This document shows, piece by piece, positions 7,880-51,717 of a stretch of 64,000 nucleotides of DNA. The notes below the pieces were generated by a model, which was given only the letters and a program-made list of their open reading frames with translations, searched no databases and was not told the DNA's origin. The position numbers and the translations under genes are program-made. Position 1 is the first letter of the stretch, and each line of letters opens with the position of its first letter. Source of the DNA: a candidate division FCPU426 bacterium (GTDB lineage Bacteria; Oederibacteriota; Muellerivitia; Muellerivitales; Muellerivitaceae); assembly GCA_023249615.1 (NCBI GenBank), contig JAHFCG010000001.1, positions 2,257-66,256 on the forward strand, given 5' to 3'.

Positions 7880-7970
7880 ATTCCGCCTCGTTTAATACTG
7901 TACGGGGAATCGTCCCCGAAAGGAACTTTTCCCAAATTTTAATATAAAATTAAAAGCACCCTCATCCCAA

Positions 7971-8116: not shown

Positions 8117-8143
8117 AGGTGAGGGTGATTCCCAGCGACTTTT

Positions 8144-17930: not shown

Positions 17931-17932
17931 CC

Positions 17933-34754: not shown

Positions 34755-35873
34755 CTACTCGGGGAGAACCGCCTTATTGGGTCCCACTTCCTGGGCCTGT
34801 TGCAAAAGTTTTTCAGCGTTTTCAAAAAGTAAAAGGTGGTTGCCCGCGTGTTTGGGATAGGTGGAGGCGCTGATATTTAAAAATACGGGCGGGCCATCCC
34901 CCATGATTTGCTTGTAAAACTTGAAAATTCTTTTTGCGATGATCCCGTAGGTCTGGTTGTCCGTATCCGGAAGGATGATGCCGTACCTGTTTTTATCCAG
35001 CCTGCAAATGATGTCAACCCGCCTCAGACTTTTATACAAGATATCCGCGACCTGGGTGGCGGTAGTGTTTTCAATCAGTTTTGCGGTCACGGGATCAATG
35101 GGTGTAACGCTTAAAAACAACAAACTGACGTGGCGGGAATAACGCTTGGCCCGTTCCACCTCGATGGCGAGGCACTCCTCGAAATAGTCCTTGTTAAATA
35201 ACCGGGTGACTTCGTCCACCAAAACCACCGGCCTTTTGTGATCATTGTCCTCTTTCTCCGGCCTGACGGTTGTGACGGGCGCGGAGACGGGTGGGTTTTC
35301 AGCTTTATTTTTGGGCCTTTCCTCAAAAGCAGGGGGAATTCCAGCCGGGATTCCTGCTTTCGGGTCCTCCACCTTCCCGGATTTTTTGATCAAATGGACC
35401 GCTTTTAATAAACTTTCCTGCCATGGTTTCCAAATATTGGTTAAATCAGTCAATAGTTCCTGTTCATAGGGACGTGAATCCTGGTGGGCGCAGCCCAGTA
35501 AAAGAAAATCCTGTTTGGGAAGATTAAAAACAAGGAAAATCCCGCTGAAGGGTTTTTGAATCCGCAGGGATCCTGACTTGTTGAAAACGGGTTTTCCGGT
35601 CATATCCAGAAAAACTTTTAACGGAAGTTTCGAAAGGGTAACCCGTTCCTCTACCCCCAACCGGTAAAAACATGTATCCATGATTTCTTCTTTACCCTCA
35701 AAGGCTAGCGGAGCGGGGGATTCTTCCGGCGTATTGGAACAGGCGATAAAAACACAATCAAATTTGAAGTTTTGAAGGATTTCCTTGCAACAAGCCGCAA
35801 GGGAGGCCTGGGTGGGGCGGCTTTGCCTGCATTGGTCGATTAATTTTTGAATGAGAAGAGTTTCGGAAATCAC
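34755..35873 (-). CDS. Sensor-domain (GAF-like) protein with a degenerate GGDEF domain, probably catalytically inactive
   Basis: The C-terminal half aligns with the GGDEF fold (DEVTRLFNKDYFEECLAIEVERAKRY...), but the signature is NRYGI instead of GG(D/E)EF. Confidence 0.6.
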   Translation of the reverse strand: MISETLLIQKLIDQCRQSRPTQASLAACCKEILQNFKFDCVFIACSNTPEESPAPLAFEGKEEIMDTCFYRLGVEERVTLSKLPLKVFLDMTGKPVFNKSGSLRIQKPFSGIFLVFNLPKQDFLLLGCAHQDSRPYEQELLTDLTNIWKPWQESLLKAVHLIKKSGKVEDPKAGIPAGIPPAFEERPKNKAENPPVSAPVTTVRPEKEDNDHKRPVVLVDEVTRLFNKDYFEECLAIEVERAKRYSRHVSLLFLSVTPIDPVTAKLIENTTATQVADILYKSLRRVDIICRLDKNRYGIILPDTDNQTYGIIAKRIFKFYKQIMGDGPPVFLNISASTYPKHAGNHLLLFENAEKLLQQAQEVGPNKAVLPE

Positions 35874-36038: not shown

Positions 36039-36653
36039 TTACTTGACCTTTATCGCCTGAAAAATGGCCCTTAACGAAACCGCGTCCGGTACCAGCAGAA
36101 AGTAACCCCCAATAACCTCATGAGCGTCAATGAATTTGGTTTCTATGCAAATTACCTTGGTGTCGTCATCCATCCCCTGGGTTAGGGAGGTCAATAGGGC
36201 CCCCGCCATGTCAAAAACCAGGGTTGGAACTGAAATAAGAAGAAGCATTCCGAGAAATTCATTCAAGGCGCTTAAATAGGCGCCGGTCAAAATATTCCCA
36301 GCCTCTTTAATGGCCGAATGACCCATCTCGGTAAGAATCTTGCTGGTTCCGACTTCCTGTTTAAGAAGCATATCCGCCAGGTGAAGGGCCGAATCCCGGG
36401 GAAAAAGCAAAACGATTTTTCCGGTTGCGTCGCCAAGGATGGCCAAGGTCAACCCGGCTACCAACGTGTTGGGGTCGCCCACAAGACGTGGAACCTCCGA
36501 AAGGGAAAGAATATTGGCCTTGGGAACAGTAATATGGATTTTTTTTCCGAGAAGCTGGGACAAAGCCGTGGCGCCATGGCCGGCGCCGATGTTGCCCACT
36601 TCCTTCAGGGCATCCAATTGGCTGGGCGTCAACTGGTCGAGATTAAGAAGCAT
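36039..36653 (-). CDS. cheC: CheC/CheX-family CheY-P phosphatase
   Basis: LDALKEVGNIGAGHGATALSQLLGKKI... duplicated CheC repeats. Confidence 0.8.
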   Translation of the reverse strand: MLLNLDQLTPSQLDALKEVGNIGAGHGATALSQLLGKKIHITVPKANILSLSEVPRLVGDPNTLVAGLTLAILGDATGKIVLLFPRDSALHLADMLLKQEVGTSKILTEMGHSAIKEAGNILTGAYLSALNEFLGMLLLISVPTLVFDMAGALLTSLTQGMDDDTKVICIETKFIDAHEVIGGYFLLVPDAVSLRAIFQAIKVK

Positions 36654-36677
36654 TCGAAAAATCCTTTTTCCAAAATC

Positions 36678-38894
36678 CTATAAACCCTCATGGGTCCCCA
36701 GGGGTATGATCCCCTGGTGCTCTTCCTGGAAACGTCTTTCCTTTAAATCCTCAATCAAACTATTGACGTCCAGAATCAACGCTATCTTACCACTCCCAAG
36801 GATGGTTGCGCCCGAAAAACCTCGGATGCCCTTCAGAAGCCTGTCGAGGGATTTTATGGCGATTTCCTGCTGGCCGATCACTTCGTCCACCAAAATTCCA
36901 ACACGAGACTCCCCCACTTCCGCCACCAGGACCGTCTCCAAACCCGTTTCAAGGGCCGGCCCGGGGGGAATAGCCATCTCAAGAAGTTCCTGAAGATGGT
37001 AAAGCGGAATGACTTCATCCCGCAAAATAAAAGTCTCCTGTTGTTGAATAATCCTTTTCTCATCCGTGTGGATATCCACGGTTTCAATGATGTTGACCAC
37101 GGGGATAACAAAAACCTCCTCGTTACATTTGACCAGGAGTCCCTTGATGATGGCGAGGGTCAAGGGAAAACGTAAAATAAAGGTGGTTCCTAATCCCTTC
37201 CGGCTTTGAATCCGGAAAGTTCCGCCAAGCGCCTCCACCTTCGTTTTGGCGACGTCCACTCCAACCCCCCGGCCTGAAACCTCGGTCGCGTTATCAATGG
37301 TGGAAAAACCCGGCAAGGCAATCAGGCGGACGGCCTCCTCGTCGGTTAATCGTATGGCTTCCTCGCGCGTAATCAGACCTTTCATAACCGCCTTCTTTCG
37401 GACCAATTCAGGATCAACTCCCCTTCCGTTGTCGATTACCGACAGGATAACGAAATGTCTTTCCCTCTTGGCCTGAAGCCGGATGGTTCCCGCGGGGTCC
37501 TTCCCTTCCTTTTCCCGTTCCTCCGGGATTTCAATCCCGTGGTCAATCGCGTTTCGGAGCAAATGAACCAGTGGCTCACTCATTTCCTCGATAACCGTCC
37601 TGTCCAATTCCACCTCAGCCCCGTCCATTTCAAGGTCCACCTGTTTATGAAGTGATTTTGCCAGGTCCCTGACCATCCGGGGAAAACGGTCAAAAATTTG
37701 CTTAACAGGCATGAGGCGGACCTTCATGATTTCGTCCTGAAGTTCATCGGTAATGTGATGAAGTTGAAAAAGGGGATCCAACAATTCCTTTAATTCTTTC
37801 TGGTGTACCACCTGTTCAAATCGGATTTTTGAGATGACCAATTCCTGAACCAAGGCCATTAACTTGTCGAGTTTAGAAGTGTGAACACGAACCGTGGGCA
37901 GGATAAAAGTCCTTTCGTCGGACCCCGTGGTTCTGGAAACCTGGGTTGAACCCTTTGAATCCGTCGGTTCCTCGGATTCCGCGTCGGTTTCCGTTTTGCC
38001 GAAATCCGACTCACGGCGGCCGGGACTCCGTTCGGGCAATACCTTAAAAGGATTTGATTTTGGAGTTTCCGATTCCTTCTTTTTAAAAACAGCCTCATGG
38101 TCCTCGTCGGGGCTAAAGGAATCGATTTGAACTTTTTCAACCTCGCTTATCCCCGTCAAGGTCTTTTTGATTTTTTCCTCAGGACTGTCGGTAACGACGA
38201 CCAGAAAAAAGCCCCTCTCGAAATGCCCCTTTTCTATTTCCTGCGGCGCCGGGTGGCTCTTTACGATTTCGCCAAGTTCATTAATGGCTTTTAAAATCAT
38301 GAAGGAGCGGACCTCCTTAAAGGCGCAATCCCTTTCCAATTCCACCATGATTTTGAATACCGAAAAACCGTTCATACGGGCCTGGGAAATCACATCCCTT
38401 TCCTCGTCCGTAAAGGGCAGGGCCACTTCCTGAACCACCTCCACCACGGGCTCCACAGGCGAAGCCGCTCCCCGGAGGGCCTCCGAGGCCTCCTGAAGGC
38501 TGGTGAGGGTGGCTTTTAAATCATCTTCCTCCAGCGAGTCATTGGACGAAAGGATGTTGACCCACTTCTCCAGTTGGTCCAGACAAATGAAAAGAGCGTC
38601 AACCAGTTGGGGCGTCAGGGGTTTGACCCCTGAACGAATGGGTTCCAGCACCGTTTCCATTTGGTGGGTGAGCTGTGCCATGGGTTCATATCCCATGGTG
38701 GCCGACATGCCCTTGATGGTGTGCGCGGCGCGGAATATCTCGTTGATGGACTCCCCGTGTCCCGGATCTTTTTCAAGAACCACGAGGGAATTGTTGAGGT
38801 TCGCGAGGTATTCCCTCGCCTCAGTCAGGAAAATTTCCTTATAGTCACTGCTTTTCACGATGGCTCCAGGGAAAAGGGAAAATGGCAATGGCAT
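36678..38894 (-). CDS. cheA: Chemotaxis histidine kinase CheA (HPt, dimerisation, HATPase and CheW-like domains)
   Basis: HTIKGMSATMGYE HPt motif, HATPase_c G-boxes, and a C-terminal CheW-like domain. Confidence 0.9.
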   Translation of the reverse strand: MPLPFSLFPGAIVKSSDYKEIFLTEAREYLANLNNSLVVLEKDPGHGESINEIFRAAHTIKGMSATMGYEPMAQLTHQMETVLEPIRSGVKPLTPQLVDALFICLDQLEKWVNILSSNDSLEEDDLKATLTSLQEASEALRGAASPVEPVVEVVQEVALPFTDEERDVISQARMNGFSVFKIMVELERDCAFKEVRSFMILKAINELGEIVKSHPAPQEIEKGHFERGFFLVVVTDSPEEKIKKTLTGISEVEKVQIDSFSPDEDHEAVFKKKESETPKSNPFKVLPERSPGRRESDFGKTETDAESEEPTDSKGSTQVSRTTGSDERTFILPTVRVHTSKLDKLMALVQELVISKIRFEQVVHQKELKELLDPLFQLHHITDELQDEIMKVRLMPVKQIFDRFPRMVRDLAKSLHKQVDLEMDGAEVELDRTVIEEMSEPLVHLLRNAIDHGIEIPEEREKEGKDPAGTIRLQAKRERHFVILSVIDNGRGVDPELVRKKAVMKGLITREEAIRLTDEEAVRLIALPGFSTIDNATEVSGRGVGVDVAKTKVEALGGTFRIQSRKGLGTTFILRFPLTLAIIKGLLVKCNEEVFVIPVVNIIETVDIHTDEKRIIQQQETFILRDEVIPLYHLQELLEMAIPPGPALETGLETVLVAEVGESRVGILVDEVIGQQEIAIKSLDRLLKGIRGFSGATILGSGKIALILDVNSLIEDLKERRFQEEHQGIIPLGTHEGL

Positions 38895-38953
38895 TTTAAC
38901 CTAATTTGGGGAAAATTGATTTGGTTGGATGTTTAAAGCGGTGTTTGTGATTA

Positions 38954-40048
38954 CTATCGGCGGTTTAAAAGCGCGTTTATTTCCTGGGCCATTTGGGACA
39001 GGGGTACCTGCCGGTCCACCATTCCCGAATCCACCGCGGCCTTGGGCATCCCGTAAACCACGCAGCTGCCGGCGTCCTGGGCGAACGTTTTTCCCCCCAC
39101 GGCATGAATATCCTTCAAACCCGCGGTTCCGTCCCTGCCCATTCCGGTCAGGATAACTCCCATGCATTGCTTGCCCGCTGTTTTGGCTACAGAGCTCATC
39201 ATGATATCGGCGGAGGGTTTTACGCCCAGCCTTGGGGGGTGATCATTAAAACCAAACTTGTAATGCCCGGCACCTCCCTCAAGAACCAGGTGAAGGCCCG
39301 CCGGGGCGACATAAGCGTGGCCCCCCATGAGATACTCTCCATCCTCCGCCTCTGAAACCTCCAGGCGGCTGACCTCACCCAGGCGCCTGGCCAGGGCTTT
39401 CGTGAAACCCACCGAAATATGCTGAACAATCACGAAAGCGACGCTCGAACTCCGGTTTAAATTGGAAAACAATTCATTGAGCGCCCTGGGCCCTCCGGTT
39501 GAGGAGGCCACCGCCACGATAAAAGTGGCCGGTTTATCCCTTTCAACCGTTTCTGGTTCGGCAGGCTTGACATTTTTTTTTACCGTGGATTCGGCGGAGA
39601 CTCCTTCCAATTCCTTGTTTCGGCGGGGCTTGCAAAGGGAGGCCATTTTTATTTTCTCGACCAATTCTCCCTGGATTGCCTTGGCGTTTTCCAAAACGCG
39701 CCCTGCCGGTTTACCGATACAATCGATGGCTCCCAGTTCGAGGGCCCTGATGGTTGTTTCGGTTCCCTTGCCTGTATGGCTGGAGATCATGACAACGGGA
39801 GTTGGCGAATCCTTCATTATTTTTTCGAGGGCGGCCAACCCGTCCATCTTGGGCATTTCCACGTCGAGCGTGATGACGTCCGGTTTCAACTTTTTGGCTT
39901 TTTCGACCGCCTCGAGCCCGTTCTGGGCGGTGTCCAAGACGGTGATTTCCCCATTGGTGGTATTCAGGATTTCAGACAGGATTTTTCTCATGAAAAAAGA
40001 ATCGTCGACGATAAGAACACGGATGGTTTTGGATTTTTCAGCCGTCAT
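38954..40048 (-). CDS. cheB: Chemotaxis methylesterase CheB (REC + CheB_methylest)
   Basis: IRVLIVDDSFFMRK receiver followed by a methylesterase domain (GASTGG...). Confidence 0.9.
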   Translation of the reverse strand: MTAEKSKTIRVLIVDDSFFMRKILSEILNTTNGEITVLDTAQNGLEAVEKAKKLKPDVITLDVEMPKMDGLAALEKIMKDSPTPVVMISSHTGKGTETTIRALELGAIDCIGKPAGRVLENAKAIQGELVEKIKMASLCKPRRNKELEGVSAESTVKKNVKPAEPETVERDKPATFIVAVASSTGGPRALNELFSNLNRSSSVAFVIVQHISVGFTKALARRLGEVSRLEVSEAEDGEYLMGGHAYVAPAGLHLVLEGGAGHYKFGFNDHPPRLGVKPSADIMMSSVAKTAGKQCMGVILTGMGRDGTAGLKDIHAVGGKTFAQDAGSCVVYGMPKAAVDSGMVDRQVPLSQMAQEINALLNRR

Positions 40049-40104
40049 GGAGGTTCCCGGTCAAATTACGGTTTGTCTTAAAAAGCTCAAAACGACTTTT
40101 GCCG

Positions 40105-40184
40105 CCGATCAAATCCGATACACGCCGATAAATCAAAATTATTTTTTACAGTTTGTAGTAATCGGCGTCCATCGGAAGTTATCG
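40105..40184. repeat. Palindromic element made of three 10-bp-phased CCGAT units, an AT-rich spacer, and three 10-bp-phased ATCGG units
   Basis: gCCGCCGATcaaaTCCGATacacGCCGATaaatc...gtaATCGGcgtccATCGGaagttATCGGCGGttg. Confidence 0.6.
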
Positions 40185-40207
40185 GCGGTTGCTTTTTTTC
40201 TTAACTT

Positions 40208-40618
40208 TCAAGCCCCGACGACCCGCTTCAAGGCTTCCTGGACGCGGGGCGGCTGGAAAGGTTTGATGATAAAGTCCCGAGCACCGGCCTGAATGGAATC
40301 AATAACCATGCTTTGCTGGCCCATGGCGCTTACCATGACGATTTTAGCCTCCGGGTCAAAGGCCCTGATTTCCCTAACGGCTTCAATGCCGTCCAATTCC
40401 GGCATGACAATATCCATGGTGACCAAATCAGGTTTTAATTTTTTATATAATTCCACGGCTTCCCGACCATTGGAAGCTTCCCCTGCCAATTCATAGGGTT
40501 CCCTTAAAATAATCCCCTTTAAGATGGTCCTCATGAAGGAGGAGTCGTCGCAAAATAAAACTTTGATGGCCAAGGCTTTTTCCTTATTTGGGGATTGCGG
40601 CTTCCGAATCCACGACAA
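40208..40618 (-). CDS. cheY: CheY-like single-domain response regulator
   Basis: VLFCDDSSFMR...DLVTMDIVMPELDGIEA. Confidence 0.85.
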   Translation of the reverse strand: MSWIRKPQSPNKEKALAIKVLFCDDSSFMRTILKGIILREPYELAGEASNGREAVELYKKLKPDLVTMDIVMPELDGIEAVREIRAFDPEAKIVMVSAMGQQSMVIDSIQAGARDFIIKPFQPPRVQEALKRVVGA

Positions 40619-41105
40619 CCCTTAGTCCCTCAAGATTAAAGGTCTTTTCCATGTTAAACAAAATAATTAACCGGTCCCGTACCGTCAATAACCCCTTCAC
40701 GAAATCAAGGGTGATATTCAGGACGGGCTGGGTGGCCTTCTCGATCGCGGTGGGGGAAACCCGTAAAACCTCCACCACCTTGTCCACGAGGAGCCCAAGC
40801 ATTTGGTCCTTGGTTTCCACGACCAGGATCCGGGTTTCCGGGGTCCTTTCCACCAAAGGCATTTCAAACCGTTTTTTAAGGTCCAAAACCGGAAAAATGC
40901 GGCCCCGGAGGTTGATTATCCCCTCCAGGTATTTTGGCGCCTTCGGCATGAGCGTAATTTCTGAAACCCGGATAATTTCCCGCACTTCCTGGATTTCCAG
41001 GGCAAGTTCACAACCCGAAAGGGTAAAAACCACAAGTTGAATCTCGGCCTTGTCCTTTGCCTGGGAGTTAAAAATTTCGGCAGTCGAAACGCTCATTCCA
41101 TTCAC
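40584..41105 (-). CDS. cheW: CheW coupling protein
   Basis: VVFTLSGCELALEIQEVREI... CheW fold, ~170 aa. Confidence 0.85.
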   Translation of the reverse strand: MNGMSVSTAEIFNSQAKDKAEIQLVVFTLSGCELALEIQEVREIIRVSEITLMPKAPKYLEGIINLRGRIFPVLDLKKRFEMPLVERTPETRILVVETKDQMLGLLVDKVVEVLRVSPTAIEKATQPVLNITLDFVKGLLTVRDRLIILFNMEKTFNLEGLRVVVDSEAAIPK

Positions 41106-41117
41106 CTCTTGGGTCGC

Positions 41118-41603
41118 TTAAATCACCAGATTGGGTTGATTCAATTTTCTTATTTCCACCTTTCCATCCGAAAGGGAGAAAAACATCGTCCTGCCCTGGG
41201 ACCCGCCAACCTCTTCACCTTTTATCCGAATCCCCTTTTCCCGCAGTATTTCCCGAATGGCCGAGGCATTCCTCATACCGATCGGAACAGCCTGCTGGGC
41301 GATGGAAACAAACATATTGGCCCCGCCGACCAATTTGGCCTCCACGGAGGTAAAATCGGCCCCTTCTTTCTTCATCCCGGCAAAAAGCGCGATCATGGCG
41401 GTGTCAGCGTACTTTCCAGGCACTGAAACCTGGGAATGCATTCGGCTGGAAGGTAGCATGATATGGGCAAGCCCGCCGATTTTTTTTACCCGGTCATAGA
41501 GGGTCACCGCTACGCAGGAACCAAGTCCGTAAGCCGCCAATCTTCCAGGATCCGTCGCCGTTTTGATTTCCGCGATTCCCACCACAAAATCATTTTCAGC
41601 CAT
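41118..41603 (-). CDS. cheD: Chemoreceptor glutamine deamidase CheD
   Basis: AYGLGSCVAVTLYDRVKKIGGLAHIMLP... conserved CheD catalytic region. Confidence 0.85.
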   Translation of the reverse strand: MAENDFVVGIAEIKTATDPGRLAAYGLGSCVAVTLYDRVKKIGGLAHIMLPSSRMHSQVSVPGKYADTAMIALFAGMKKEGADFTSVEAKLVGGANMFVSIAQQAVPIGMRNASAIREILREKGIRIKGEEVGGSQGRTMFFSLSDGKVEIRKLNQPNLVI

Positions 41604-42234
41604 CGCTGGGAAGTCCCAGTGATTTTGAGAATGCCGCGAAAAACTTTTTCAGGGAATCCGCCTCCGGCAAAAGGAAAAAACTGCCGGTCAATTGCTTGTC
41701 ATCCTCCAAAAACTGGGTTTCGATCACGATGGCCACTTCCTCCCGTTGCTCGAGTTCCACCAGGACTGTATCCAAAATCGCCTGGGCCATGTCAATCGCA
41801 AGGCTCGGAACCCCGTGAATGAGCTGAAGGTTGATAAAACGGAAGAGGGCGCTCAAGTAAGAGCCGGTCAGAATGCTTCCCAACTCCTTGATGGCTGATT
41901 GGCCCAGCTCGGAAAGGTTATTGGGATCTTCTTCCTTCCTGCCGATCAGCATCGCGGAAAGCTCCGGCAGTCGTTCCAGGGGAAAAAAAATGAGGGCAAT
42001 GCCGAGCATCTCCCCATAAACCGGCATATGAACCGCGGCGACATTTTTCTCAATTCCACCCAAGAAACCGGCGATGGCGTCAGCGGGAAGGACAAGCACC
42101 TTCGTGACCGACATATCAACTCTTTTGCCCACCATTTGGGATAGGGCGGTCGCGGCGTTTCCGGCCCCGATATTTCCGATTTCCCTCAGGGCGTCCAGCT
42201 GAAATTCGGTAAAGGGTTTTGAATCATTGGCCAT
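41596..42234 (-). CDS. cheC: Second CheC-family phosphatase
   Basis: LDALREIGNIGAGNAATALSQMVGKRV... Confidence 0.8.
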   Translation of the reverse strand: MANDSKPFTEFQLDALREIGNIGAGNAATALSQMVGKRVDMSVTKVLVLPADAIAGFLGGIEKNVAAVHMPVYGEMLGIALIFFPLERLPELSAMLIGRKEEDPNNLSELGQSAIKELGSILTGSYLSALFRFINLQLIHGVPSLAIDMAQAILDTVLVELEQREEVAIVIETQFLEDDKQLTGSFFLLPEADSLKKFFAAFSKSLGLPSDG

Positions 42235-42301
42235 AGGATCTGCCTTTCGGGGTTCCGTGTTCGGGTCGAGACGATTGAAGACTGATCAACACTGGGGGGG
42301 T

Positions 42302-42664
42302 TCAGCCCAGAACTTTTTTAACGGCCTCAAGAACATTGGAGGGTTGAAAGGGTTTTACGATGAAATCTTTCGCTCCCGCCTGGATGGCTTCAACCACCAG
42401 GGATTGCTGGCCCATGGAACTGCACATCAAAATTTTGGCGGCAGGATTCCCCTTCACAATTTCACGGACGGCGTCAATACCGCCCATTTCAGGCATGATA
42501 ATGTCCATGATCACGAGGTCGGGCTTCAGGGTTTTATACTGCTCAACGGCTTTGGCCCCGTTTTCGGCCTCCCCGATCACCTCATAACCCGAACCCACCA
42601 GAATGTTTTTCAACATCATCCGCATGAATGAAGCGTCATCCACCAGCATTACGCGATGAGCCAC
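42302..42664 (-). CDS. cheY: CheY-like response regulator
   Basis: VMLVDDASFMR...DLVIMDIIMPEMGGIDA. Confidence 0.85.
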   Translation of the reverse strand: MAHRVMLVDDASFMRMMLKNILVGSGYEVIGEAENGAKAVEQYKTLKPDLVIMDIIMPEMGGIDAVREIVKGNPAAKILMCSSMGQQSLVVEAIQAGAKDFIVKPFQPSNVLEAVKKVLG

Positions 42665-42758
42665 GACTTCCTCCCCAAACTAAATTTTGAATTTTTAATT
42701 CTTAATTTTTAACAGGCGACCCAATCAAGAATTTAAAATTAAACATTAACAATAGCTT

Positions 42759-43097
42759 TTATAAGGCGTTCTCACCCCGCTCGCCAGTTCGGACCCGGAT
42801 CGCGTCCTCCAGGGGCATTATAAAAAATTTCCCGTCGCCCACCCGCCCCGTACGGACGGTTTCCAGCAAAAGCTCCACCACCTTTTCAATCTCATCGTCG
42901 GGAAGGGCGATTTCAAGGCGTGTTCTCGGCTGGTATTGTACCTTATAATCGGCGCCCTTCACCGCCTCCACCTGGACTTTCTGATACCCGTAGCCGGAAC
43001 CATCCGAAATGGTCACGCCCCGAACACCCGCCTCCCACAGTACTTTTTTAACCTGATCTATTTTTTTGGGGGTAATCACGCAGACAAGAAGTTTCAT
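42759..43097 (-). CDS. PII (GlnB/GlnK-like) signal-transduction protein
   Basis: 112 aa; MKLLVCVITPKK...GYGYQKV...KGADY (T-loop with Tyr)...GRVGDGKFFIMPLEDAIRVRTGE matches the PII fold end to end. Confidence 0.75.
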   Translation of the reverse strand: MKLLVCVITPKKIDQVKKVLWEAGVRGVTISDGSGYGYQKVQVEAVKGADYKVQYQPRTRLEIALPDDEIEKVVELLLETVRTGRVGDGKFFIMPLEDAIRVRTGERGENAL

Positions 43098-43104
43098 GGA
43101 ATTC

Positions 43105-45357
43105 CTATTTAATCAGTTTGGATTGGCTCGCGCTCGGGGAAATCTGAAGTTCTTTTTTCCAGGCCTGAATCTGCTGGATCACATCCACCGCCTGAAGAGC
43201 CTTTTCCTCGTCGGGATTCGGGGAATCCAGGTATTTTTGGAATTCCTTGATTGCCTCATCCCACCAGCTTTTATACCTGTAAACCTGGGCTAGATGGAAA
43301 TGAATTTCATTTAAATTTGGCTCCAGTTCCTGACTTTTTTTCAGTTCTACCAGGGCCTCGTCCCACCATTGACGGCTGATATAAACCCTTCCTAATTGAA
43401 GGTGAGCCTCGGGATAAAGGGGATCGCACGAGACGGCCCTTGCCAGGACCTTTACCGCGTCGTCCAGGGACTGGGTAAGAAGATAAACCTCGCCCAACCG
43501 GGTAAGCGCCTCCCTGTTTTTGGGGCTGAGACGGATGGCTTCCTGGAATTCCTGGATTGCTTCGGGGAATTGGCCCGTGCTTTTATAAAGGTTGCCCAGG
43601 TTAAAATGGAGGCTTGGGTTTTCCGGATCCGCCATGATTTGTTTGATCAGGACTTCCGAGGCCTCGGACAGGACATTTTTTTTCTTTAAAGCGACGGCAA
43701 GGTTGTTTTGGGCCGTCTTATAGTCCGGTTCGATATCAACGGCTTTTTTGAAGGCCTCAATCGCCTTTTCGTATTGGCTTTGTTTGAAATAAACAACCCC
43801 CAGGTTGTTGTAAGCCTTGGCGTATTTGGGATTAAGTTGAATGGCCTGTTGATAATGTTGAATCGCCTCCGGAACCAACCCCGCGTTTTTGTAGGCGACC
43901 CCGAGGCTGTTATGGATAATCGGGTTTTTGGGGTCAAATTCCATTGCCTTTTTGTATTCCGCGATGGCTTCCTCAAACCGGCCCTTGTCGGCGAAGGCAA
44001 GGCCCAAATAAGTCAGCGCCTCGGCGCTGGAGGCGATGGAGACATTCAATTCGATGGCCTGGGAAATTTCACGAATGGCTTCGTCGTAAAGGTTGACCTT
44101 GTAATAGTAAACCCCCAGGTAGTAATGGGCCTCGGCGTTTTGGGGATCAATTTCCAGGGCCTGCCGAACCTCCCTGGTCGCCTTTTCACTTTCCCCCATT
44201 TTGAAATAAGTGACCCCCAATTCAAAATGGGCCATGCTGGACCCGGGGACCAGTTCAATGGCCTTTGTAAATTGGACGGCGGCCTGATCGGTTCGATTAA
44301 GCTCACGCAGGGCGATTCCGGCCTGAATATAATTTTCGACGTGCCCGGGAGCCAATTCAATGGCTTTCCGGGAGGCGGCCAAAGCGTCCTCGAACATCCC
44401 CTTCAACAGATACAGCTCGCCCACCGCGCGAAAAAGCTTTTCCTCGTTCGGCATGGCCTCAATGGCCCTCCGGTATTCCCGGAGAGCCTCCTCAAGCAGG
44501 CCTTTTCCCTTGTAAGCTGCGGCCAAACTCAGATAAGTTTCCGCGTTGGAAGTTCCGGCTGGTTGAGCCGCGACCTTTTCGGCCACCTTTTCTTCCATGG
44601 TTTTCGGCCGTTCGATCGCCAAAAGCGCCTGGGCCCCCTGGCCGAAATTGGGGTTTAAATCGACCGCCTTTTTGAATTCCCTCTCGGCTTCCTCCAGCAT
44701 GTTTTTATCCCCATAAACGAAACTCAAATTGTAATGGGCAATGGCATAATCCGGGTTCAGGGAAATGGCCTTTTTAAATTCGATCAACGCCTCATTGATC
44801 ATGGCCTTTTTGTAATAAACCTCGCCAAGATTGTTGTGGAGGTCGGCGAAATAGGGATTTTTGTCAATGGCCTTTCGAAACTCGACCATAGCTTGGTCAA
44901 AATTTCCCATGGCCTTGTGGGCTATCCCCAGGTAATTTCGGGCGAAGGGATGGTCCTGATTCAGCAGGAGGGTTTTCTGGTATTCCTCCACTGCCTTTTC
45001 GTATTGCCCGGTGTAACGATACGCGTTGGCCAGGTTATAAAAGGCCTCGGCATCCTGGGGAAACATCTGGACTGATTTTTTGTAGGCCTCGATGGAACGG
45101 TCATAAAGCCCCGTGTGACGGTTGACGGATTTCAGGTTTTCCTGTGCCTGGGCGTTTTCCGGCTCGACTTCCAGGGCCGTCTTGAATTCCTTGATGGCCT
45201 CCGCGTACATTCCCTTGGAATAATAAAAAACCCCAAGGTTGTTATGGGTGGAGGCATCGCCCTGGTCCGAGCCGTGGGCCATTTCACGGATGGTTTTCGT
45301 TTCAGGGCGGGAAGGCATAATCAACCTCGGAGGAAGGCAATGATAGGGTTTTTTCAT
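43105..45357 (-). CDS. Large TPR-repeat protein (~750 aa)
   Basis: About 20 consecutive 34-residue TPR units (AxxxYxxAlxlxP pattern). Confidence 0.8.
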   Translation of the reverse strand: MKKPYHCLPPRLIMPSRPETKTIREMAHGSDQGDASTHNNLGVFYYSKGMYAEAIKEFKTALEVEPENAQAQENLKSVNRHTGLYDRSIEAYKKSVQMFPQDAEAFYNLANAYRYTGQYEKAVEEYQKTLLLNQDHPFARNYLGIAHKAMGNFDQAMVEFRKAIDKNPYFADLHNNLGEVYYKKAMINEALIEFKKAISLNPDYAIAHYNLSFVYGDKNMLEEAEREFKKAVDLNPNFGQGAQALLAIERPKTMEEKVAEKVAAQPAGTSNAETYLSLAAAYKGKGLLEEALREYRRAIEAMPNEEKLFRAVGELYLLKGMFEDALAASRKAIELAPGHVENYIQAGIALRELNRTDQAAVQFTKAIELVPGSSMAHFELGVTYFKMGESEKATREVRQALEIDPQNAEAHYYLGVYYYKVNLYDEAIREISQAIELNVSIASSAEALTYLGLAFADKGRFEEAIAEYKKAMEFDPKNPIIHNSLGVAYKNAGLVPEAIQHYQQAIQLNPKYAKAYNNLGVVYFKQSQYEKAIEAFKKAVDIEPDYKTAQNNLAVALKKKNVLSEASEVLIKQIMADPENPSLHFNLGNLYKSTGQFPEAIQEFQEAIRLSPKNREALTRLGEVYLLTQSLDDAVKVLARAVSCDPLYPEAHLQLGRVYISRQWWDEALVELKKSQELEPNLNEIHFHLAQVYRYKSWWDEAIKEFQKYLDSPNPDEEKALQAVDVIQQIQAWKKELQISPSASQSKLIK

Positions 45358-45940
45358 CCACTAGCTTATCCGGGTTCAAAACGGAGTAAATATCCTCCTT
45401 GATTTTTCCGAGACAATAATACAAATCGTTCTTTTTCCCGAAGAGGTAGGGGGGGCAGGGCTCAATCTGGTCAATCTTCAAACGGGCCACCTCCCTGACC
45501 TGGTCCACCCACAAAATAAAGGGAAGCCCCTTTTTTTCCAGGACGATAAACCAAGTTCCCTTGCTCGCGGGGACGGCTCCCAACCCAAGGAATTTCCGGA
45601 AGGATAAAACCGGAAAAACTTTTCCCCTTAAAATCAACTCACCCTCCCAAAAATCCTGGGGCTGGGCCAGGGGACGCAAAATGGAATGTTTCAAAACCTC
45701 CCGAACCCGGTAGGTTTCGATTCCATAAAGCTCATTTTCCACCTGAAAGGTCAAAACCATCATTCCCTGCATCACCTGGAGGATATCCCGTTCCTCCACA
45801 AAACCGAGGCGCACGAGAACCTTGCCAATGGGCTCGTGGTTTTTTTTCTGCTCCCCCAAGGCCACCTGTATCTGGCGCGAGGTTATTTTTCCAGCCTGGC
45901 GGAGAAGTTCTCCCAGGGATTTTTCCTGCGGTTTCATCAT
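45302..45940 (-). CDS. MshEN (T2SSE_N-like c-di-GMP-binding) domain fused to a CheW-like domain
   Basis: N-terminal SLGELLRQAGKITSRQIQVALGEQ fits the MshEN 24-mer RLGxxLLxxGLLxxxxLxxxLxxQ. The C-terminal half is CheW-like (LTFQVENELYGIETYRVREV). Confidence 0.6.
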   Translation of the reverse strand: MMKPQEKSLGELLRQAGKITSRQIQVALGEQKKNHEPIGKVLVRLGFVEERDILQVMQGMMVLTFQVENELYGIETYRVREVLKHSILRPLAQPQDFWEGELILRGKVFPVLSFRKFLGLGAVPASKGTWFIVLEKKGLPFILWVDQVREVARLKIDQIEPCPPYLFGKKNDLYYCLGKIKEDIYSVLNPDKLVDEKTLSLPSSEVDYAFPP

Positions 45941-47121
45941 ACGACGGTGCTCCCCTTCATGATTTTAAGGTTGTTTTTCAAAATTTCATTGGTCGGGTCC
46001 AAGGCCAGGGACTTTTCCCAATGGTCAAGGGCCATTTGTTTTTCACCCTTTTTCATATATATATTTCCCAATTTTGAATGGGCGTCCGCGTGGGTCGGAT
46101 TAAGGCTTAACAGTTTTTCATATTCCACGATCGCCTCATCAAAGTGGCCCAATTTGTAGTTCAGGTTTCCCAAATTATCCAGGATCAGGACATCGTTTGG
46201 GTTGATTAATTTCGCTGCCTTATATTCCTCCAGGGCCTTTTGAATGTCCCCTTGTTTATCATAAATATAACCCAAAACGTTGTGAACGCTGGCGTCATTT
46301 GGGTTAATTTCCATCACTTTTCGGTACATCTTGATCGCGTCCTCATGAAGTCCGCGGCCCGCGTAAATCATCCCCAGCTTGAGATAAACCTCGGCGTTGT
46401 TGGGATTTTTTTCGCGGGCCTGCTTTAAAACCTCGATCGCCTTGTCATATTGCCCCAGTGACATAAAGGCGTGTCCCATTTTCAAATGGGCTTCCGGTTC
46501 ATGGGGGTTGAGTTTCAGCGCCTGCTGGTATTGAACCAGGGCTTCCGGGTACATCCCGCGTTTGGAATAGGCGTTCCCCAGAATGGCGTAAACGGCCGCA
46601 TGCCTCGGGTTGGCGATTAGGGCCTTTTCGTAGGCTGAGATGGCCTCGTCCAAATGACCGGATTGTTCGCAGGCATATCCCATCTTGAAATAGATTTCCG
46701 CGTTGCTCGGATTTATGGCGGTGTAATTCTTGTATTGTTCAACGGCCTCCTGGTAGGCCCCCATTTTCGCGTAAACATTCCCCAGGTTGTTAAAGAGGCC
46801 GGCGTCGCCCGGATTAAGTTCGATTGATTTTTTGAATTCCAAAACAGCATCGGGGTATTTCCCCTGAATCTCCAAAAGGAGCCCCAATTTACAATGCGCG
46901 TTAAGGTTCATGGGGTTTATTTCGAGGGACTTCCGGTAATAGGATTCCGCTTCGGGATAATTTCCCATATTGGTGCAAAGGGCTCCCAAATGAAACAATA
47001 TTTCTCCGTCATTGGGGGTTAATTCGAGGGCTTTTTTAAACTCAACCAGCGCGTCCTCATACCGCTTGGAAAGCGTAAAAGCCGTCCCGAGATTGATATG
47101 ATCCTGCGCCTTATCCATCAC
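45937..47121 (-). CDS. TPR-repeat protein (~394 aa)
   Basis: About 11 TPR units. Confidence 0.8.
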   Translation of the reverse strand: MMDKAQDHINLGTAFTLSKRYEDALVEFKKALELTPNDGEILFHLGALCTNMGNYPEAESYYRKSLEINPMNLNAHCKLGLLLEIQGKYPDAVLEFKKSIELNPGDAGLFNNLGNVYAKMGAYQEAVEQYKNYTAINPSNAEIYFKMGYACEQSGHLDEAISAYEKALIANPRHAAVYAILGNAYSKRGMYPEALVQYQQALKLNPHEPEAHLKMGHAFMSLGQYDKAIEVLKQAREKNPNNAEVYLKLGMIYAGRGLHEDAIKMYRKVMEINPNDASVHNVLGYIYDKQGDIQKALEEYKAAKLINPNDVLILDNLGNLNYKLGHFDEAIVEYEKLLSLNPTHADAHSKLGNIYMKKGEKQMALDHWEKSLALDPTNEILKNNLKIMKGSTVV

Positions 47122-47980
47122 TCACCTTTTCCTCTTTGTTTGTTTCCCAAAAATTTTCGGTTTTTTCCAAAAGTCTGTAAATTCTGTTCCGAACATCAAC
47201 ACATTCATAAAATTTTCTGGAAGGTCCCAATAATGTTTCCGTCAAACCCAAAATCAAAAACCCTCCCGCGGCCAAGGCGCCGGCGAAATTTTTATAGATT
47301 TTTTGCTGCAGGGGCGCCGTCAGATAGATCAAAAGGTTCCGGCAAAAAATCAACTGAAACCCGGACAACTCATCCACCCATTCCGACAACAAATCGTGGG
47401 CCCTGAAATGAACATGCTTTTTAAGATCCGCGACAACCCTGGCTCTGGAACCCTCCACGTAAAACCAGCGGGTGACCTGAGCCTTGGAAAGCTTTTTGAG
47501 CGCCTCGACCGGATATTCACCTTTTTCAGCCGTTCGAATGCTGGCCATGTCAATATCCGTGGCGAAAATCTCAAAATCAAATCCAGGCTGGGAAAAGGAG
47601 CACTCCTTCAAAATCATGGCTACGGAATAGGGTTCCTCCCCCGTACTGCACCCCGCGCACCAAATTTTCAGTTTAATCCCGGGATTCACGGGAAAACCCG
47701 GTAAAATATTTTGCTTAATCGCCTGGTAAACATTTGGGTCACGAAAAAATTCTGTGACGTGGATGGTCAGCCGATCCAATAGAAGCGCGGGTTCCTGCCT
47801 GTTATTTTGCAAAACCCGAAGATAATCAAGGTAAGTTTTTGTTTCCATGGCCCGCATCCGGACAGCGACACGGCGTTTGATGTAATTTGGCTTATACTGA
47901 TGGCCGTCAAAACCCTTTGTCTTCAAAAGAAGGGCCAGGATTTTTTGAAAATTCGGATCCTCTTCTTTCCCAGCGTTCAT
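47111..47980 (-). CDS. cheR: Chemotaxis methyltransferase CheR
   Basis: ...FFRDPNVYQ...IWCAGCSTGEEPYSVAMIL... SAM-binding core. Confidence 0.85.
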   Translation of the reverse strand: MNAGKEEDPNFQKILALLLKTKGFDGHQYKPNYIKRRVAVRMRAMETKTYLDYLRVLQNNRQEPALLLDRLTIHVTEFFRDPNVYQAIKQNILPGFPVNPGIKLKIWCAGCSTGEEPYSVAMILKECSFSQPGFDFEIFATDIDMASIRTAEKGEYPVEALKKLSKAQVTRWFYVEGSRARVVADLKKHVHFRAHDLLSEWVDELSGFQLIFCRNLLIYLTAPLQQKIYKNFAGALAAGGFLILGLTETLLGPSRKFYECVDVRNRIYRLLEKTENFWETNKEEKVSDG

Positions 47981-48010: not shown

Positions 48011-48985
48011 TCAAGGCTGGTAAATCGCCTCAAACCCTTTCTGAATTGGGAAATTATTGGTAATGATTTGGGCCAATGAATATTCCGGTCCTGTGTAAAA
48101 AACCTGGGCGATTCCCCTTTCCACAAGGATGGGAGGGTCCCAAAGTCCCGCCGGTTTAACTTCCCTCAGCTGGAATTTTTGTCCTTCCACCACACCTTTT
48201 TTGCTGCCGGCCGTGATAAAAATAAATTCAGGCTGGTTGAAATTATCCATATTGGGGTACCCCCCAGCCACGTAACATTTAACCGGGTGGTCCGGAAGGG
48301 TCTTTTTAACCTGCGCCTGTTTCCAGCGTTTTAATTCATCATCATAAAACCTTACCTGGTCACCCGCCTCAAAGGGGTAAAAGGTTTTTTTAACCTCCAC
48401 CTGACACCGCCGCTTTTCCACCGAAAGGACCTTCACGATTCCTAAATTCCTGACGTAGAGTCCCGAAAAACCCGATTGGGATTCCCTAACATTGTAAATG
48501 GTATTATAAACAATCAGCAGGTCCCCCGGCTTGACGCCATATTTGGTTGACGAAACCTCAATGTATGTTTTTTTCCCCGTGCTGTAAGAAACCTGGTTAT
48601 CAAAAGAACCAACAACATGGCCAACCGAGGAAACCTTTGATTCCTCCGGTACCAAAAAACCAGAACTGACAAAATAATAAAACCCGATTTTATCGTTGAT
48701 CCGGACCCTGGCCATTTTGGACCCGGGCTTGTCCTCCACGGGCTTATCCTGTTTCAGGGTAATTTCCGACTTGGGGGGTTCTTCCCGTGCTTTTGAATCT
48801 TCCCGCCTCGTATTTTCGGACCTGGGTGCTGGGACGGTGGGGGTCGGTGGGGCATCCATGTCAGCCTCATCCTCCTCAACCTCAATCGTCGCCGAAACCG
48901 CAAGGACCGGACGAAGAAAAGAAACAATGAGGACGGAAATCAAAATTAAGGAAAACGCCGAAACTTTCAATTTCTTAATGGGCAT
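48011..48985 (-). CDS. Hypothetical secreted/anchored protein with an acidic Pro-rich linker and a C-terminal beta-rich domain
   Basis: N-terminal TM/signal FSLILISVLIVSFLRPVLA; no recognisable family. Confidence 0.5.
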   Translation of the reverse strand: MPIKKLKVSAFSLILISVLIVSFLRPVLAVSATIEVEEDEADMDAPPTPTVPAPRSENTRREDSKAREEPPKSEITLKQDKPVEDKPGSKMARVRINDKIGFYYFVSSGFLVPEESKVSSVGHVVGSFDNQVSYSTGKKTYIEVSSTKYGVKPGDLLIVYNTIYNVRESQSGFSGLYVRNLGIVKVLSVEKRRCQVEVKKTFYPFEAGDQVRFYDDELKRWKQAQVKKTLPDHPVKCYVAGGYPNMDNFNQPEFIFITAGSKKGVVEGQKFQLREVKPAGLWDPPILVERGIAQVFYTGPEYSLAQIITNNFPIQKGFEAIYQP

Positions 48986-49413: not shown

Positions 49414-51717
49414 TTAACTTATCTTTGAAAATATCCCCGTGAGGGTGTTCTTTTTAATTTTGGCTTCCTCTATTTTCTTTTGCGCGCGTTCATTCGCCGG
49501 ATCGATTTCCAGAATTTTGCTCCAGAGCCTGATGGCCTGGTCCATGTCATTTTGATCAAAGAATGTTTTTCCCTCGGCGTAATACTTTTCGGATTCCTGT
49601 TGAATGACAGCCTTCAGGGCCCCCAGTTGGCGGACGACTTCAGGATGCCCCGGTGAAAGCCGCAGCACCTTCGTGTATTCCTTTTGGGCGGTCGAGAGAT
49701 CGCCGGACTGGTGGGCGTTCCAACCCTCCTGAAAAATTTCATTAATCTGAAGTTCGTGCATTTGTGTTGTTTTCTGAAGATAGGCGTTCAGGTAGGCATT
49801 GCCATCCGCCTTCGATATGGCCTTTTTAAAAAACTCCATCGCGGTTTGAAAATCGCTTCGGACATAACTCCGGACCCCTTGTTCAAAAAGATTTAAAATG
49901 GGTTCCTTTTCCGGATTGGCTTCCAAACCCTCGACCCCGAAGGAAAGTAGCTTGGCGATGCCCTGTTGCAGGTAACGGGAAACATCCTCCAAGTCGGAAT
50001 TTAAATCATAAGCCTTGTTCCAGGCCACGAGGGCCCCCAATAAATCCCCAGCCTTGTACAACTCGATGGCGGACTGGTTCAAGGAATCGGCCCTGACTTT
50101 TGCCTGTTCTTTTTGGATCGCGGTTTTAAGATCCCTCTGTAAAACCCGGGCCTGTTCGTTTTGGGGATCAAGGGTAAGGGCCTGGTTGACCTGCGCGAGG
50201 GCGTTGGCAAGGTCCGACTGCTGCTGATAGGTTACGGCGTTTTGATAAAACTCCCGGGCCTTGGTCCGGTTATCCAGTTCTTCCTGAATCGCCTTGATGT
50301 AGGCTTTCGCCTGTTTGTTCTCGGGATCCGTTTCCAGTGTTTTTTGGAACTCTAGAATCGCGGCCTGGTGTTTTCCTTCCCGATACATTTGAAGGGCGGT
50401 TTTAATACCCGAGGAGGCATCCTTCTTCTTTTCCGTTTTATCGTCCATTTCCCGCAACCGGGCCATGAGGGTGTTAGCCTCTTTGTGATCCGGGATTTCC
50501 TGCAATACCCGTTTCAATTCACCCCGCGCGTCATCGAAGCGGTTTTTCGCGTAATATTCCTGCGCGCGTTTCATCCACCCCGAGACCCGGTCTTTTTGTT
50601 GCGCGTTTTCCATTTGGGAAATGAGGGATTGCGCCGAGGCCCGGGAGGTGGAAATTCCCTTGAGGCCAAGGTCAATTTCACTTGGCGAAGTCGCTTGTTC
50701 CATGGCGCTTTCCTTCGTGATAAAACCGCCCCGAACCAGTTGAATAAGGGATTGGTCGAAGGTTTGCATCCCGTATTGGCTTTGTCCTTCAGCGATAAAC
50801 CCCCGAATATGGCTAATTTTTCCCTCGGCGATAAGCGATTTGATGGTGGGGGTCGCGATCATGATTTCCGCCGCCGGAACCACCCCGACACCGTCAGCCT
50901 TGCTGACAAGGCGTTGGGAAATGACCGCCCGGATGGTGTTGGACAACTGGATCCGGATCTGGTTTTGTTGGGCCGGGGGGAAAAAATCAAGAATACGCTC
51001 CATGGTTTGAACGGTATCCATCGTATGGAGGGTTGATAAAACCAGATGCCCTGTTTCGGCCGCGGAGATGGCCGCGGAAACCGTTTCGACATCCCGCATT
51101 TCACCAATAAGAATAATGTCAGGATCCTGGCGAAGAACGTATTTAAGGGCGGACCTGAAACTTTCAGTATCAAGCCCCACCTCCCGCTGGGTAACACTGG
51201 ATTTTTTATCCTTGTGCACAAACTCAATGGGATCTTCAACGGTAACAATGTGAGCCGCCCGGTTGAGATTCATTTCATTGATCAGGGCGGCCAGGGTGGT
51301 GGATTTACCGGAGCCGGTGATTCCCGTGACCAGGATCAGACCCCGCTGTTCCATCGCGATTTGTTTCAAAACCGCGGTGGGCATGTTGATGTCCTCAATC
51401 CGGGGAATGTTTTGGGGAATCTGCCTCATGATGATTTCCGGCAATCCCCTTTGCCACATGGCGTTGGTCCGGAACCGGGCCAAACCCTCAACGGCGTAGG
51501 CCAGGTCAACCTCGCGGTGTTCCTCAAAAAAAATTCTTTGTTGTTTTTCGTCCATCAGGTAGGAAGCCACTTCGGCCAATTCCTGGGGAGAAAGGGGGGT
51601 TTCGCCTTGCGGGGTCAAATCACCGTCAATTCGAAACAGGGGGGGAGCGCCGGCCTTCATATGAACGTCGGAGGCCTTTTTTTCAACCATGGAACTGAGA
51701 ATTTGTTGAAGGTCCAT
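49414..51717 (-). CDS. pilT: PilT-family type IV pilus retraction-type ATPase fused to a ~420 aa C-terminal TPR region
   Basis: N-terminal MDLQQILSSMVEKKASDVHMKAGAPPLFRIDGDL (PilT N-terminus), Walker A LILVTGITGSGKSTTLAALI, followed by TPR repeats to the C-terminus. Confidence 0.75.
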   Translation of the reverse strand: MDLQQILSSMVEKKASDVHMKAGAPPLFRIDGDLTPQGETPLSPQELAEVASYLMDEKQQRIFFEEHREVDLAYAVEGLARFRTNAMWQRGLPEIIMRQIPQNIPRIEDINMPTAVLKQIAMEQRGLILVTGITGSGKSTTLAALINEMNLNRAAHIVTVEDPIEFVHKDKKSSVTQREVGLDTESFRSALKYVLRQDPDIILIGEMRDVETVSAAISAAETGHLVLSTLHTMDTVQTMERILDFFPPAQQNQIRIQLSNTIRAVISQRLVSKADGVGVVPAAEIMIATPTIKSLIAEGKISHIRGFIAEGQSQYGMQTFDQSLIQLVRGGFITKESAMEQATSPSEIDLGLKGISTSRASAQSLISQMENAQQKDRVSGWMKRAQEYYAKNRFDDARGELKRVLQEIPDHKEANTLMARLREMDDKTEKKKDASSGIKTALQMYREGKHQAAILEFQKTLETDPENKQAKAYIKAIQEELDNRTKAREFYQNAVTYQQQSDLANALAQVNQALTLDPQNEQARVLQRDLKTAIQKEQAKVRADSLNQSAIELYKAGDLLGALVAWNKAYDLNSDLEDVSRYLQQGIAKLLSFGVEGLEANPEKEPILNLFEQGVRSYVRSDFQTAMEFFKKAISKADGNAYLNAYLQKTTQMHELQINEIFQEGWNAHQSGDLSTAQKEYTKVLRLSPGHPEVVRQLGALKAVIQQESEKYYAEGKTFFDQNDMDQAIRLWSKILEIDPANERAQKKIEEAKIKKNTLTGIFSKIS

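Follow-up and report, generated by a model that had tools for sequence, protein, structure and literature searches.

Why does a gene for a PII signalling protein lie among the chemosensory genes of a bacterium from the candidate division FCPU426? The gene occupies positions 42759..43097 of a 64-kb stretch of contig JAHFCG010000001.1 (all 64,000 nucleotides of which are hereafter called the window), and its neighbours encode chemotaxis (Che) proteins and large tetratricopeptide repeat (TPR) proteins. PII proteins are the classic sensors of carbon, nitrogen and energy status, and they are known to act on transporters, metabolic enzymes and transcription regulators. In a full-text literature search we found neither a PII gene within a pilus or chemosensory cluster nor a PII component in any che class described in the literature searched, in agreement with the original prediction, made from the sequence of the window, that such an arrangement is undescribed. 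We find the arrangement to be real, deeply conserved and apparently undescribed. The protein, termed che-PII below, belongs to a specialised subfamily of PII whose co-encoded partners are of a new class, and it points to an undescribed route by which the internal state of the cell is fed into a behaviour pathway. FCPU426 is an uncultured candidate phylum described as rare and poorly sampled, for which a genome-recovery study reports little genomic representation and no physiology (PMC10434106), and che-PII offers a first functional handle on signalling in this group.

The open reading frame was verified on the minus strand, with an ATG at 43097 and a stop at 42759-42761, and encodes a protein of 112 aa, MKLLVCVITPKK...RVGDGKFFIMPLEDAIRVRTGERGENAL. 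The Pfam P-II profile (PF00543) matched this protein over profile positions 1-102 of 102 (E 1.2e-23, 83.8 bits, cut-off 25), and the closest solved structure, the PII protein 2eg1, aligned to it gap-free, residues 1-112 on 1-112 (E 1.2e-32). Identity to solved GlnB, GlnK and GlnZ was 43-46%, again in a gap-free alignment. An AlphaFold2 (AF2) monomer model based on a 74-sequence alignment reached a mean pLDDT of 88.7, with the T-loop (residues 36-55) as the sole low-confidence stretch, and followed the order strand-helix-strand, T-loop, strand-helix-strand (E2-8, H10-22, E29-35, E56-65, H67-81, E89-95). The top 50 Foldseek matches in the PDB were PII, GlnK or GlnZ without exception (TM scores 0.79-0.88). 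Tyr51 is present in the T-loop. On the coding strand the gene is preceded by that of TPR750, a 750-aa TPR protein whose stop lies 7 nt ahead of the PII ATG, and is followed after a 94-nt gap by a gene for a 120-aa CheY. The predicted full-length PII fold with a T-loop tyrosine, encoded between a cheY gene and a large TPR gene, was thus confirmed. The gene is real and under constraint, the median dN/dS (ratio of nonsynonymous to synonymous substitution rates) being 0.047 across the 22 pairs of orthologs in which dS was not saturated. A promoter and terminator scan of the cluster gave counts equal to the shuffled expectation, and the 94-nt gap between PII and cheY was unremarkable.

Homologs of the window protein formed 73 clusters at 68-91% identity, after which identity dropped abruptly to 54%, and ordinary PII proteins stood at about 47%. 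A profile built from sequences with a shorter T-loop, like that of the FCPU426 locus L071, recovered more than 100 further clusters and ranked the window's clade next. The che-PII family comprises 166 sequence clusters, and all residue counts given here were taken over these 166. In a neighbour-joining tree of 208 sequences, the 166 che-PII sequences separated from 42 canonical PII proteins in 100% of 200 bootstraps, the canonical sample being limited to the nearest matches and including E. coli GlnB and GlnK; the window's clade received 97% support in the same tree. The NCBIfam equivalog models for GlnB and GlnK scored the window protein below cut-off (NF007946, 99.8 vs 181; NF008111, 93.9 vs 202). 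Markers of the family are W21 and R85 (both 166/166) and R26 (162/166), and F11 is absent throughout (0/166), being K11 in the window protein. The uridylylation-site signature, which we take to be the PROSITE pattern Y-[KR]-G-[AS]-[AE]-Y ending at Y51, occurs in 39 of the 42 canonical proteins and in none of the 166 che-PII sequences, the window protein reading V-K-G-A-D-Y; by this pattern che-PII lacks the signature. Y51 itself is confined to the window's clade, and the T-loop measures 18-20 residues in most other members. Judged by tree and residues together, the window protein belongs to a subfamily of its own and is not a displaced GlnB or GlnK; it is best explained as a dedicated non-nitrogen paralogue.

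What che-PII could sense was approached through its ligand-contacting residues. The core nucleotide-binding elements, namely G35, G37, the B-loop T83-G84-x-x-G87-D88-G89-K90 and R101/R103/T104/G105/E106, are all kept at the sequence level; these residues are common to all PII proteins and invariant in che-PII, except that T83, found in the window protein and 157/166 sequences, is Ser in the remaining nine. By contrast, the T-loop base is altered. R38, a phosphate-contacting residue in canonical PII, is gone in 166/166 and replaced by Y, F or L (Y38 in the window protein), and the basic residue (K/R) at position 9 is likewise gone in 166/166, with S, P or T instead. K58 has become R in 160/166, and the Mg ligand Q39, kept in 146/166 including the window protein, is missing in 20/166. 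The window's clade carries the extra changes V41 (G41 being Val throughout the clade), Q42, D50, Q54 and Q56. K58 and Q39 are direct ligands of 2-oxoglutarate and Mg (PMC6908673, PMC3198391), and the substitutions K58N and K58M abolish 2-oxoglutarate binding (PMC6908673). From these residues we conclude that the nucleotide pocket has been retained and the 2-oxoglutarate site at the T-loop base remodelled. Adenylate sensing by che-PII may reasonably be inferred, but sensing of 2-oxoglutarate appears doubtful because K58, R38, the position-9 base and G41 are altered and Q39 is missing from part of the family; the earlier suggestion that che-PII couples 2-oxoglutarate status to the pathway is weakened to the same degree.

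The placement of the gene was compared over about 20 kb in each of 29 distinct loci from the candidate phylum FCPU426 and unassigned metagenome contigs, among them 13 close genomes, ten of the clusters recovered with the shorter-T-loop profile and five loci found independently through the gene for MshEN-CheW, a fusion of an MshE-type c-di-GMP-binding motif domain with CheW. In 28 of these loci PII occupies the slot [MshEN-CheW]-([TPR])-PII-CheY, in three cluster architectures and with PII sequences that range in identity from 46% to about 90%, so that conservation of the placement in related genomes, a question raised with the original prediction, is answered in the affirmative. A close block of 13 species-representative genomes, all candidate division FCPU426 although a few are labelled proteobacteria, shares an identical 18-gene order in a tblastn map (13/13), with an ortholog of TPR750 directly 5' of PII in each. 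In the most distant genome of this clade PII is 71% identical, compared with 59% for TPR750, 43% for CheA and 40% for CheD, and PII therefore ranks among the best-conserved parts of the cluster. In L071, from another FCPU426 metagenome-assembled genome, PII is 46% identical and lies in the same cluster. The metagenome search with MshEN-CheW used a 3-sequence alignment; in at least 70 of its 80 loci the match was confined to the MshEN motif of an unrelated protein, a PilT-like ATPase gene adjoining it in the few that were inspected, and MshEN-CheW was followed by PII in 5/5 full-length relatives with downstream sequence. Among 213 retrieved proteins none fused PII to a Che, TPR or PilT domain, the longer ones being wrong starts, frameshift tails or tandem duplications of canonical PII. 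Its recurrent placement makes che-PII a fixed, strongly conserved part of a pilus-linked chemosensory module in FCPU426 and in unassigned metagenome contigs. A mirror-tree test of PII against 17 cluster proteins (14 and 21 loci, partial correlation against background) was discarded, since the score of DprA equalled those of the TPR proteins and several matrices were distorted by paralog cross-hits and truncated high-scoring segment pairs.

The three architectures differ in what stands ahead of PII and in the presence of a methyl-accepting chemotaxis protein (MCP). Type A, that of the window's clade, reads CheW-TPR~740-PII-CheY without an MCP; type B (L087-L089, L173) reads CheW-TPR528-PII-CheY...MCP; and type C (L071, L086, L090-L094, L172, L174) reads CheW-PII-CheY...MCP, without such a TPR gene. 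The first 520 aa of TPR750 are homologous (33% identity) to TPR528, a 528-aa protein whose gene overlaps the PII start in type B, and in a further locus, L170, a TPR gene is coupled to PII, which is again followed by CheY. In type B and the majority of type C loci the PII start and the upstream stop share 4 nt; the start lies 7 nt past the stop in the window and several other type A loci, and is about 10-130 nt away in the rest, with gaps of up to about 50 nt behind MshEN-CheW in several type C loci. By these spacings the PII start is shown to be translationally coupled to whichever gene lies upstream. No MCP homolog was found in the window or in the other type A loci, whereas type B and C relatives carry one, built of a two-transmembrane hairpin, a HAMP domain and a signalling domain, with no periplasmic or other ligand-binding domain. 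CheR, CheB and CheD act on MCPs; the window's clade has lost the cluster MCP yet kept all three (window 36039..47980 vs L087:11893-13179 and L071:11873-13153). Alongside this loss, the TPR gene ahead of PII is longer, at about 740 aa instead of 528.

The surrounding cluster (Table 1) proved to be more than the che operon originally described. Che genes do surround PII, and the F1-like set is complete in one cluster (CheA, CheW, CheY, CheB and CheR, together with CheC, CheD and CheX), but the description is too narrow: the cluster starts with PilT-TPR, a PilT/PilU-family ATPase, and a TsaP-like gene, and one relative retains PII without che genes. The ATPase scores above its family cut-off and is accompanied by a pilus accessory (TsaP-like) protein, as in a type IVa pilus-associated module, so that the cluster combines chemosensory genes with parts of a type IVa pilus and is not a plain flagellar che operon. 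PilT-TPR was found in every locus that reaches that far upstream, and TPR394 is kept in all loci with che genes that extend to its position. The CheY directly 3' of PII is the best-conserved protein of the cluster, with 76-95% identity in the 13 close genomes and 75% in L071. The N-terminal domain of MshEN-CheW went unrecognised in Pfam, where the best matches were DUF2949 (0.0044) and DUF4388 (0.099), and was identified by an MshE-related NCBIfam model above cut-off; its motif residues are invariant in all three architectures. No description of this fusion was found in the full-text literature search.

The single locus outside the conserved slot is informative about the partner of che-PII. 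L171, a 34-kb metagenome contig (JGI Ga0497407_0000043, region 4331-9455), has the order prfA-prmC-PilT-TPR-h170-h265(TsaP-like)-PII-dprA-topA-gidA-argBDFG. All che genes have been lost on both sides of PII without remnants, and no CheW, CheA or CheY lies within 8 kb either side. Its PII is nevertheless intact, collinear and 85% identical to that of the complete type C locus L174, and pairwise dN/dS against this che-bearing sister is 0.11 for PII and 0.08 for PilT-TPR. Two deletions that spared a 340-bp gene suggest that PII is of value without CheW, CheA or CheY, and the PII partner therefore need not be a Che protein. With moderate weight, given a single contig, PII would accordingly act at one site or more within the PilT-TPR/TsaP-like part of the module. 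L171 also keeps two small exported proteins, h170 and the TsaP-like h265, between PilT-TPR and PII.

PII genes usually adjoin their targets, as in glnK-amtB and sbtB-sbtA, and all PII proteins studied work by ligand-dependent binding of the T-loop to a partner whose gene is often a neighbour. Che-PII is likely to act as an ATP/ADP-responsive switch that attaches to some protein of its module. The reading that we place first, tentatively and with a probability of roughly 45%, is that a dedicated che-PII docks on a TPR domain, or on PilT-TPR, in a nucleotide-state-dependent manner within the pilus-linked chemosensory module. By analogy with all studied PII proteins, che-PII would form a trimer in which the T-loops take on different shapes depending on whether ATP or ADP is bound, and in one nucleotide state it would clamp onto a protein of the same module. 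A TPR domain would be the preferred partner because a TPR gene stands directly ahead of PII in two of the three architectures and because PilT-TPR alone among the module components accompanies PII in all loci that extend to its position, L171 included. The effect would be that the energy state gates pilus retraction, CheA-to-CheY signalling or both. PII would thereby feed internal information into a pathway with a receptor devoid of a sensing domain in types B and C and with no receptor gene in the cluster of the window's type, and c-di-GMP, through MshEN-CheW, would form a second internal input. A stronger version, which we regard as unlikely, makes the che-PII trimer itself the sensory input of the pathway: it would read the ATP/ADP ratio, or another nucleotide or second messenger, in its remodelled R38/K58/K9 pocket and signal directly to the CheA array and the PilT-TPR motor by TPR docking, alongside c-di-GMP sensing by MshEN-CheW. 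Such a system would amount to 'metabolic-state taxis', a module that needs no receptor and has a PII protein as its basis. With che-PII fixed in a pilus-linked chemosensory cluster, behaviour and motility machinery would join the list of PII targets and chemotaxis would gain a new class of cytoplasmic input protein. As che-PII is small (112 aa) and its neighbours are conserved, synthesis and assay are feasible without culturing the organism.

Ranked second to TPR or PilT docking, and somewhat unlikely in our estimate, is direct action of che-PII on the Che array, in which it would bind MshEN-CheW, CheA or the adjacent CheY and tune CheA autophosphorylation or phosphotransfer, the TPR proteins being unrelated scaffolds. 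It draws on the position of PII in 28/29 loci, where a CheW-type gene stands on one side, either adjacent or separated by a single TPR gene, and CheY, which no other cluster protein exceeds in conservation, on the other; on type C, where the stop of MshEN-CheW is overlapped by the PII start or is no more than about 50 nt away; on the five relatives noted above, none of which has an MshEN-CheW gene lacking PII behind it; and on GlnB-NtrB as a precedent for PII control of a histidine kinase (PMC6978683). It is harder to reconcile with the intact, constrained PII of L171, with the insertion in two architectures of a TPR gene exactly between CheW and PII and tightly coupled to PII, and with the lack of any PII-Che domain fusion among the retrieved proteins. 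Several points weigh in turn against docking on a TPR protein. The preference for TPR over CheW, CheA or CheY comes from gene order and one che-less locus, and type C runs counter to it, PII there being coupled to MshEN-CheW instead of a TPR gene. L171 itself is one metagenome contig, and its che genes may have been lost recently or, less likely, may be missing through an artefact of assembly. The universal loss of R38 may mean that the nucleotide affinity or specificity of che-PII differs, and the variation of the T-loop between the three architectures may place the contact surface elsewhere, for example on the family-invariant W21/R26/R85 face. Finally, che-PII may have an additional nitrogen-control role, the loci compared covering about 20 kb each.

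A purely nitrogen-related origin of the arrangement was also considered. Acetylglutamate kinase (NAGK), the product of argB, is a known PII target in cyanobacteria and plants, and this control is known only among oxygenic phototrophs. No amtB, glnA, glnD or ntrBC was found among the gene-like open reading frames of at least 110 aa in the window, nor amtB, glnA or nif in any flank with Pfam annotation; the earlier statement that no nitrogen gene lies nearby holds for these genes but overlooks argB, about 12 kb 3' of PII. If the window PII were an ordinary nitrogen regulator of arginine synthesis that merely shares a neighbourhood with che genes, the presence of argB and the conserved flank dprA-topA-(gidA)-argB-argD-argF-argG, which in L171 brings argB to within three genes of PII, would be accounted for. 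This is improbable, as eleven genes separate PII from argB in the window, PII is coupled to TPR or CheW genes and not to argB, and of the residues that contact NAGK in the solved complex, F11, E85 and T83 (PMC6908673), only T83 is kept, F11 and E85 being replaced by K11 and R85 in the window protein, with neither F at position 11 nor E at position 85 in any of the 166 sequences. Least probable of all, to the point of being negligible, is a canonical GlnB or GlnK carried into the che cluster by rearrangement without a functional link. The full-length, gap-free alignment to GlnB and GlnK structures would suit it, but in 28 loci that span deep divergence PII is found in one and the same slot, the family forms a clade apart from canonical GlnB/GlnK, the scores against the two equivalog models come to about half of their cut-offs, the uridylylation signature is missing throughout, and the glnK-amtB remnant in relatives that would betray such an event was absent from every Pfam-annotated flank. 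The rearrangement scenario therefore fails on both phylogeny and gene context.

Among the nearest described systems, che-PII may be compared first with canonical PII (E. coli GlnB and GlnK, A. brasilense GlnZ, S. elongatus PII). Shared features are the length of 112 aa without indels, the fold, the B-loop TGxxGDGK and the C-loop R101, R103 and TGE, with Q39 and Y51 also kept in the window protein. Differences are R38Y, G41V, K58R, F11K and the change of K/R9 to S/P/T; the new residues W21, R26 and R85; the missing uridylylation signature and the scores below both NCBIfam cut-offs; and a gene located in a pilus/chemosensory cluster instead of beside amtB, glnA or nif. The best functional precedent for contact with a phosphorelay is GlnB-NtrB, where PII likewise belongs to one pathway with a histidine kinase and a response regulator. 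Here, however, the kinase is CheA with its CheW/receptor array and the interaction is only putative, and GlnB is not encoded inside the ntrBC operon as che-PII is in its cluster. SbtB-SbtA and GlnK-AmtB resemble the present case in that a specialised PII member is co-encoded, often in translational coupling, with the machine it regulates, and SbtB has lost K58 as has che-PII. The targets in those systems are membrane transporters, whereas TPR proteins, CheW/CheY and a PilT ATPase are co-encoded here, and SbtB ligands are cAMP and c-di-AMP, while adenine nucleotides are the putative ligands of che-PII.

Small accessory proteins that modulate CheA-CheY signalling from inside the cell are familiar in CheC, CheD and CheX and in PilZ-type adaptors such as MapZ, which bring c-di-GMP input to chemotaxis. 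Their folds are unrelated to that of che-PII and none is a nucleotide-sensing PII protein. The closest precedent in the literature is GlnZ of A. brasilense, which binds c-di-GMP enzymes; a glnZ mutant is altered in aerotaxis (PMC7646526). PII status thus touches both taxis and c-di-GMP signalling in that organism, and the window cluster contains MshEN-CheW and has a GGDEF protein next door; GlnZ, however, is a general canonical PII acting indirectly through diguanylate cyclase and phosphodiesterase enzymes encoded elsewhere, whereas che-PII is a specialised, structural part of its cluster.

Table 1 Features of the window and of related loci (coordinates refer to the window unless a locus is named).
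Feature	Position	Strand	Evidence or remark
PilT-TPR, PilT/PilU-family type IVa pilus ATPase with C-terminal TPR region of ~400 aa; first cluster gene	49414..51717	-	TIGR01420 463.5 bits (cut-off 319.1), residues 3-347; Pfam T2SSE and TPR
135-aa protein with N-terminal hydrophobic helix	48975..49382	-	No family match; position conserved
324-aa exported protein with TsaP/FlgT-like beta domain	48011..48985	-	No family match; TsaP-like fold
CheR methyltransferase	47111..47980	-	CheR_N and CheR in orthologs; synteny
TPR394, 394-aa TPR protein	45937..47121	-	Pfam TPR families
MshEN-CheW fusion	45302..45940	-	NF053729 E 3.5e-15, 55.5 bits (cut-off 38), residues 9-57; Pfam CheW 4.6e-21
TPR750, all-TPR protein, candidate docking partner	43105..45357	-	At least 14 TPR repeats (Pfam)
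che-PII, divergent PII-family protein, 112 aa	42759..43097	-	Pfam P-II, PDB 2eg1, AF2, Foldseek
CheY, 120 aa	42302..42664	-	Response_reg 3.8e-31
CheC	41596-42234	-	Pfam/NCBIfam, synteny
CheD	41118-41603	-	Pfam/NCBIfam, synteny
CheW	40584-41105	-	Pfam/NCBIfam, synteny
CheY (second)	40208-40618	-	Pfam/NCBIfam, synteny
CheB	38954-40048	-	Pfam/NCBIfam, synteny
CheA	36678-38894	-	Pfam/NCBIfam, synteny
CheC/CheX	36039-36653	-	Pfam/NCBIfam, synteny
372-aa protein with weak C-terminal GGDEF domain, just 3' of the cluster	34755..35873	-	Pfam GGDEF 4.8e-13, 49.6 bits; position conserved in the window's clade
dprA, topA	further downstream of the GGDEF protein		Pfam/NCBIfam
argB (acetylglutamate kinase)	29848..30711	-	Pfam/NCBIfam; TIGR00761 252.7 bits (cut-off 151.3)
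Two tandem single-domain PilZ proteins (126 and 129 aa)	17550..18322	-	
LpxC-FabZ (FabA-like) fusion	14382..15716	-	In lpxI-lpxA-lpxC/fabZ-lpxD-ompH block
lptF/lptG	10443..12700		
1998-aa open reading frame	1883..7879	-	No Pfam match at E 1e-5
FtsA/PilM-like protein	L083:16568-18694, L087:17778-19931, L086:17715-19898		

Some further features of the window and its relatives were recorded. An FtsA/PilM-like actin-fold protein of about 710-730 aa, absent from the window, is encoded after the last che gene in types B and C as well as in the type A genome that diverges most. The tandem PilZ proteins represent further c-di-GMP receptors in the same 64 kb, and a very long open reading frame lies near the start of the window. 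The lpx block, which includes an LpxC-FabZ fusion, and lptF/lptG indicate that the organism has a lipopolysaccharide outer membrane.

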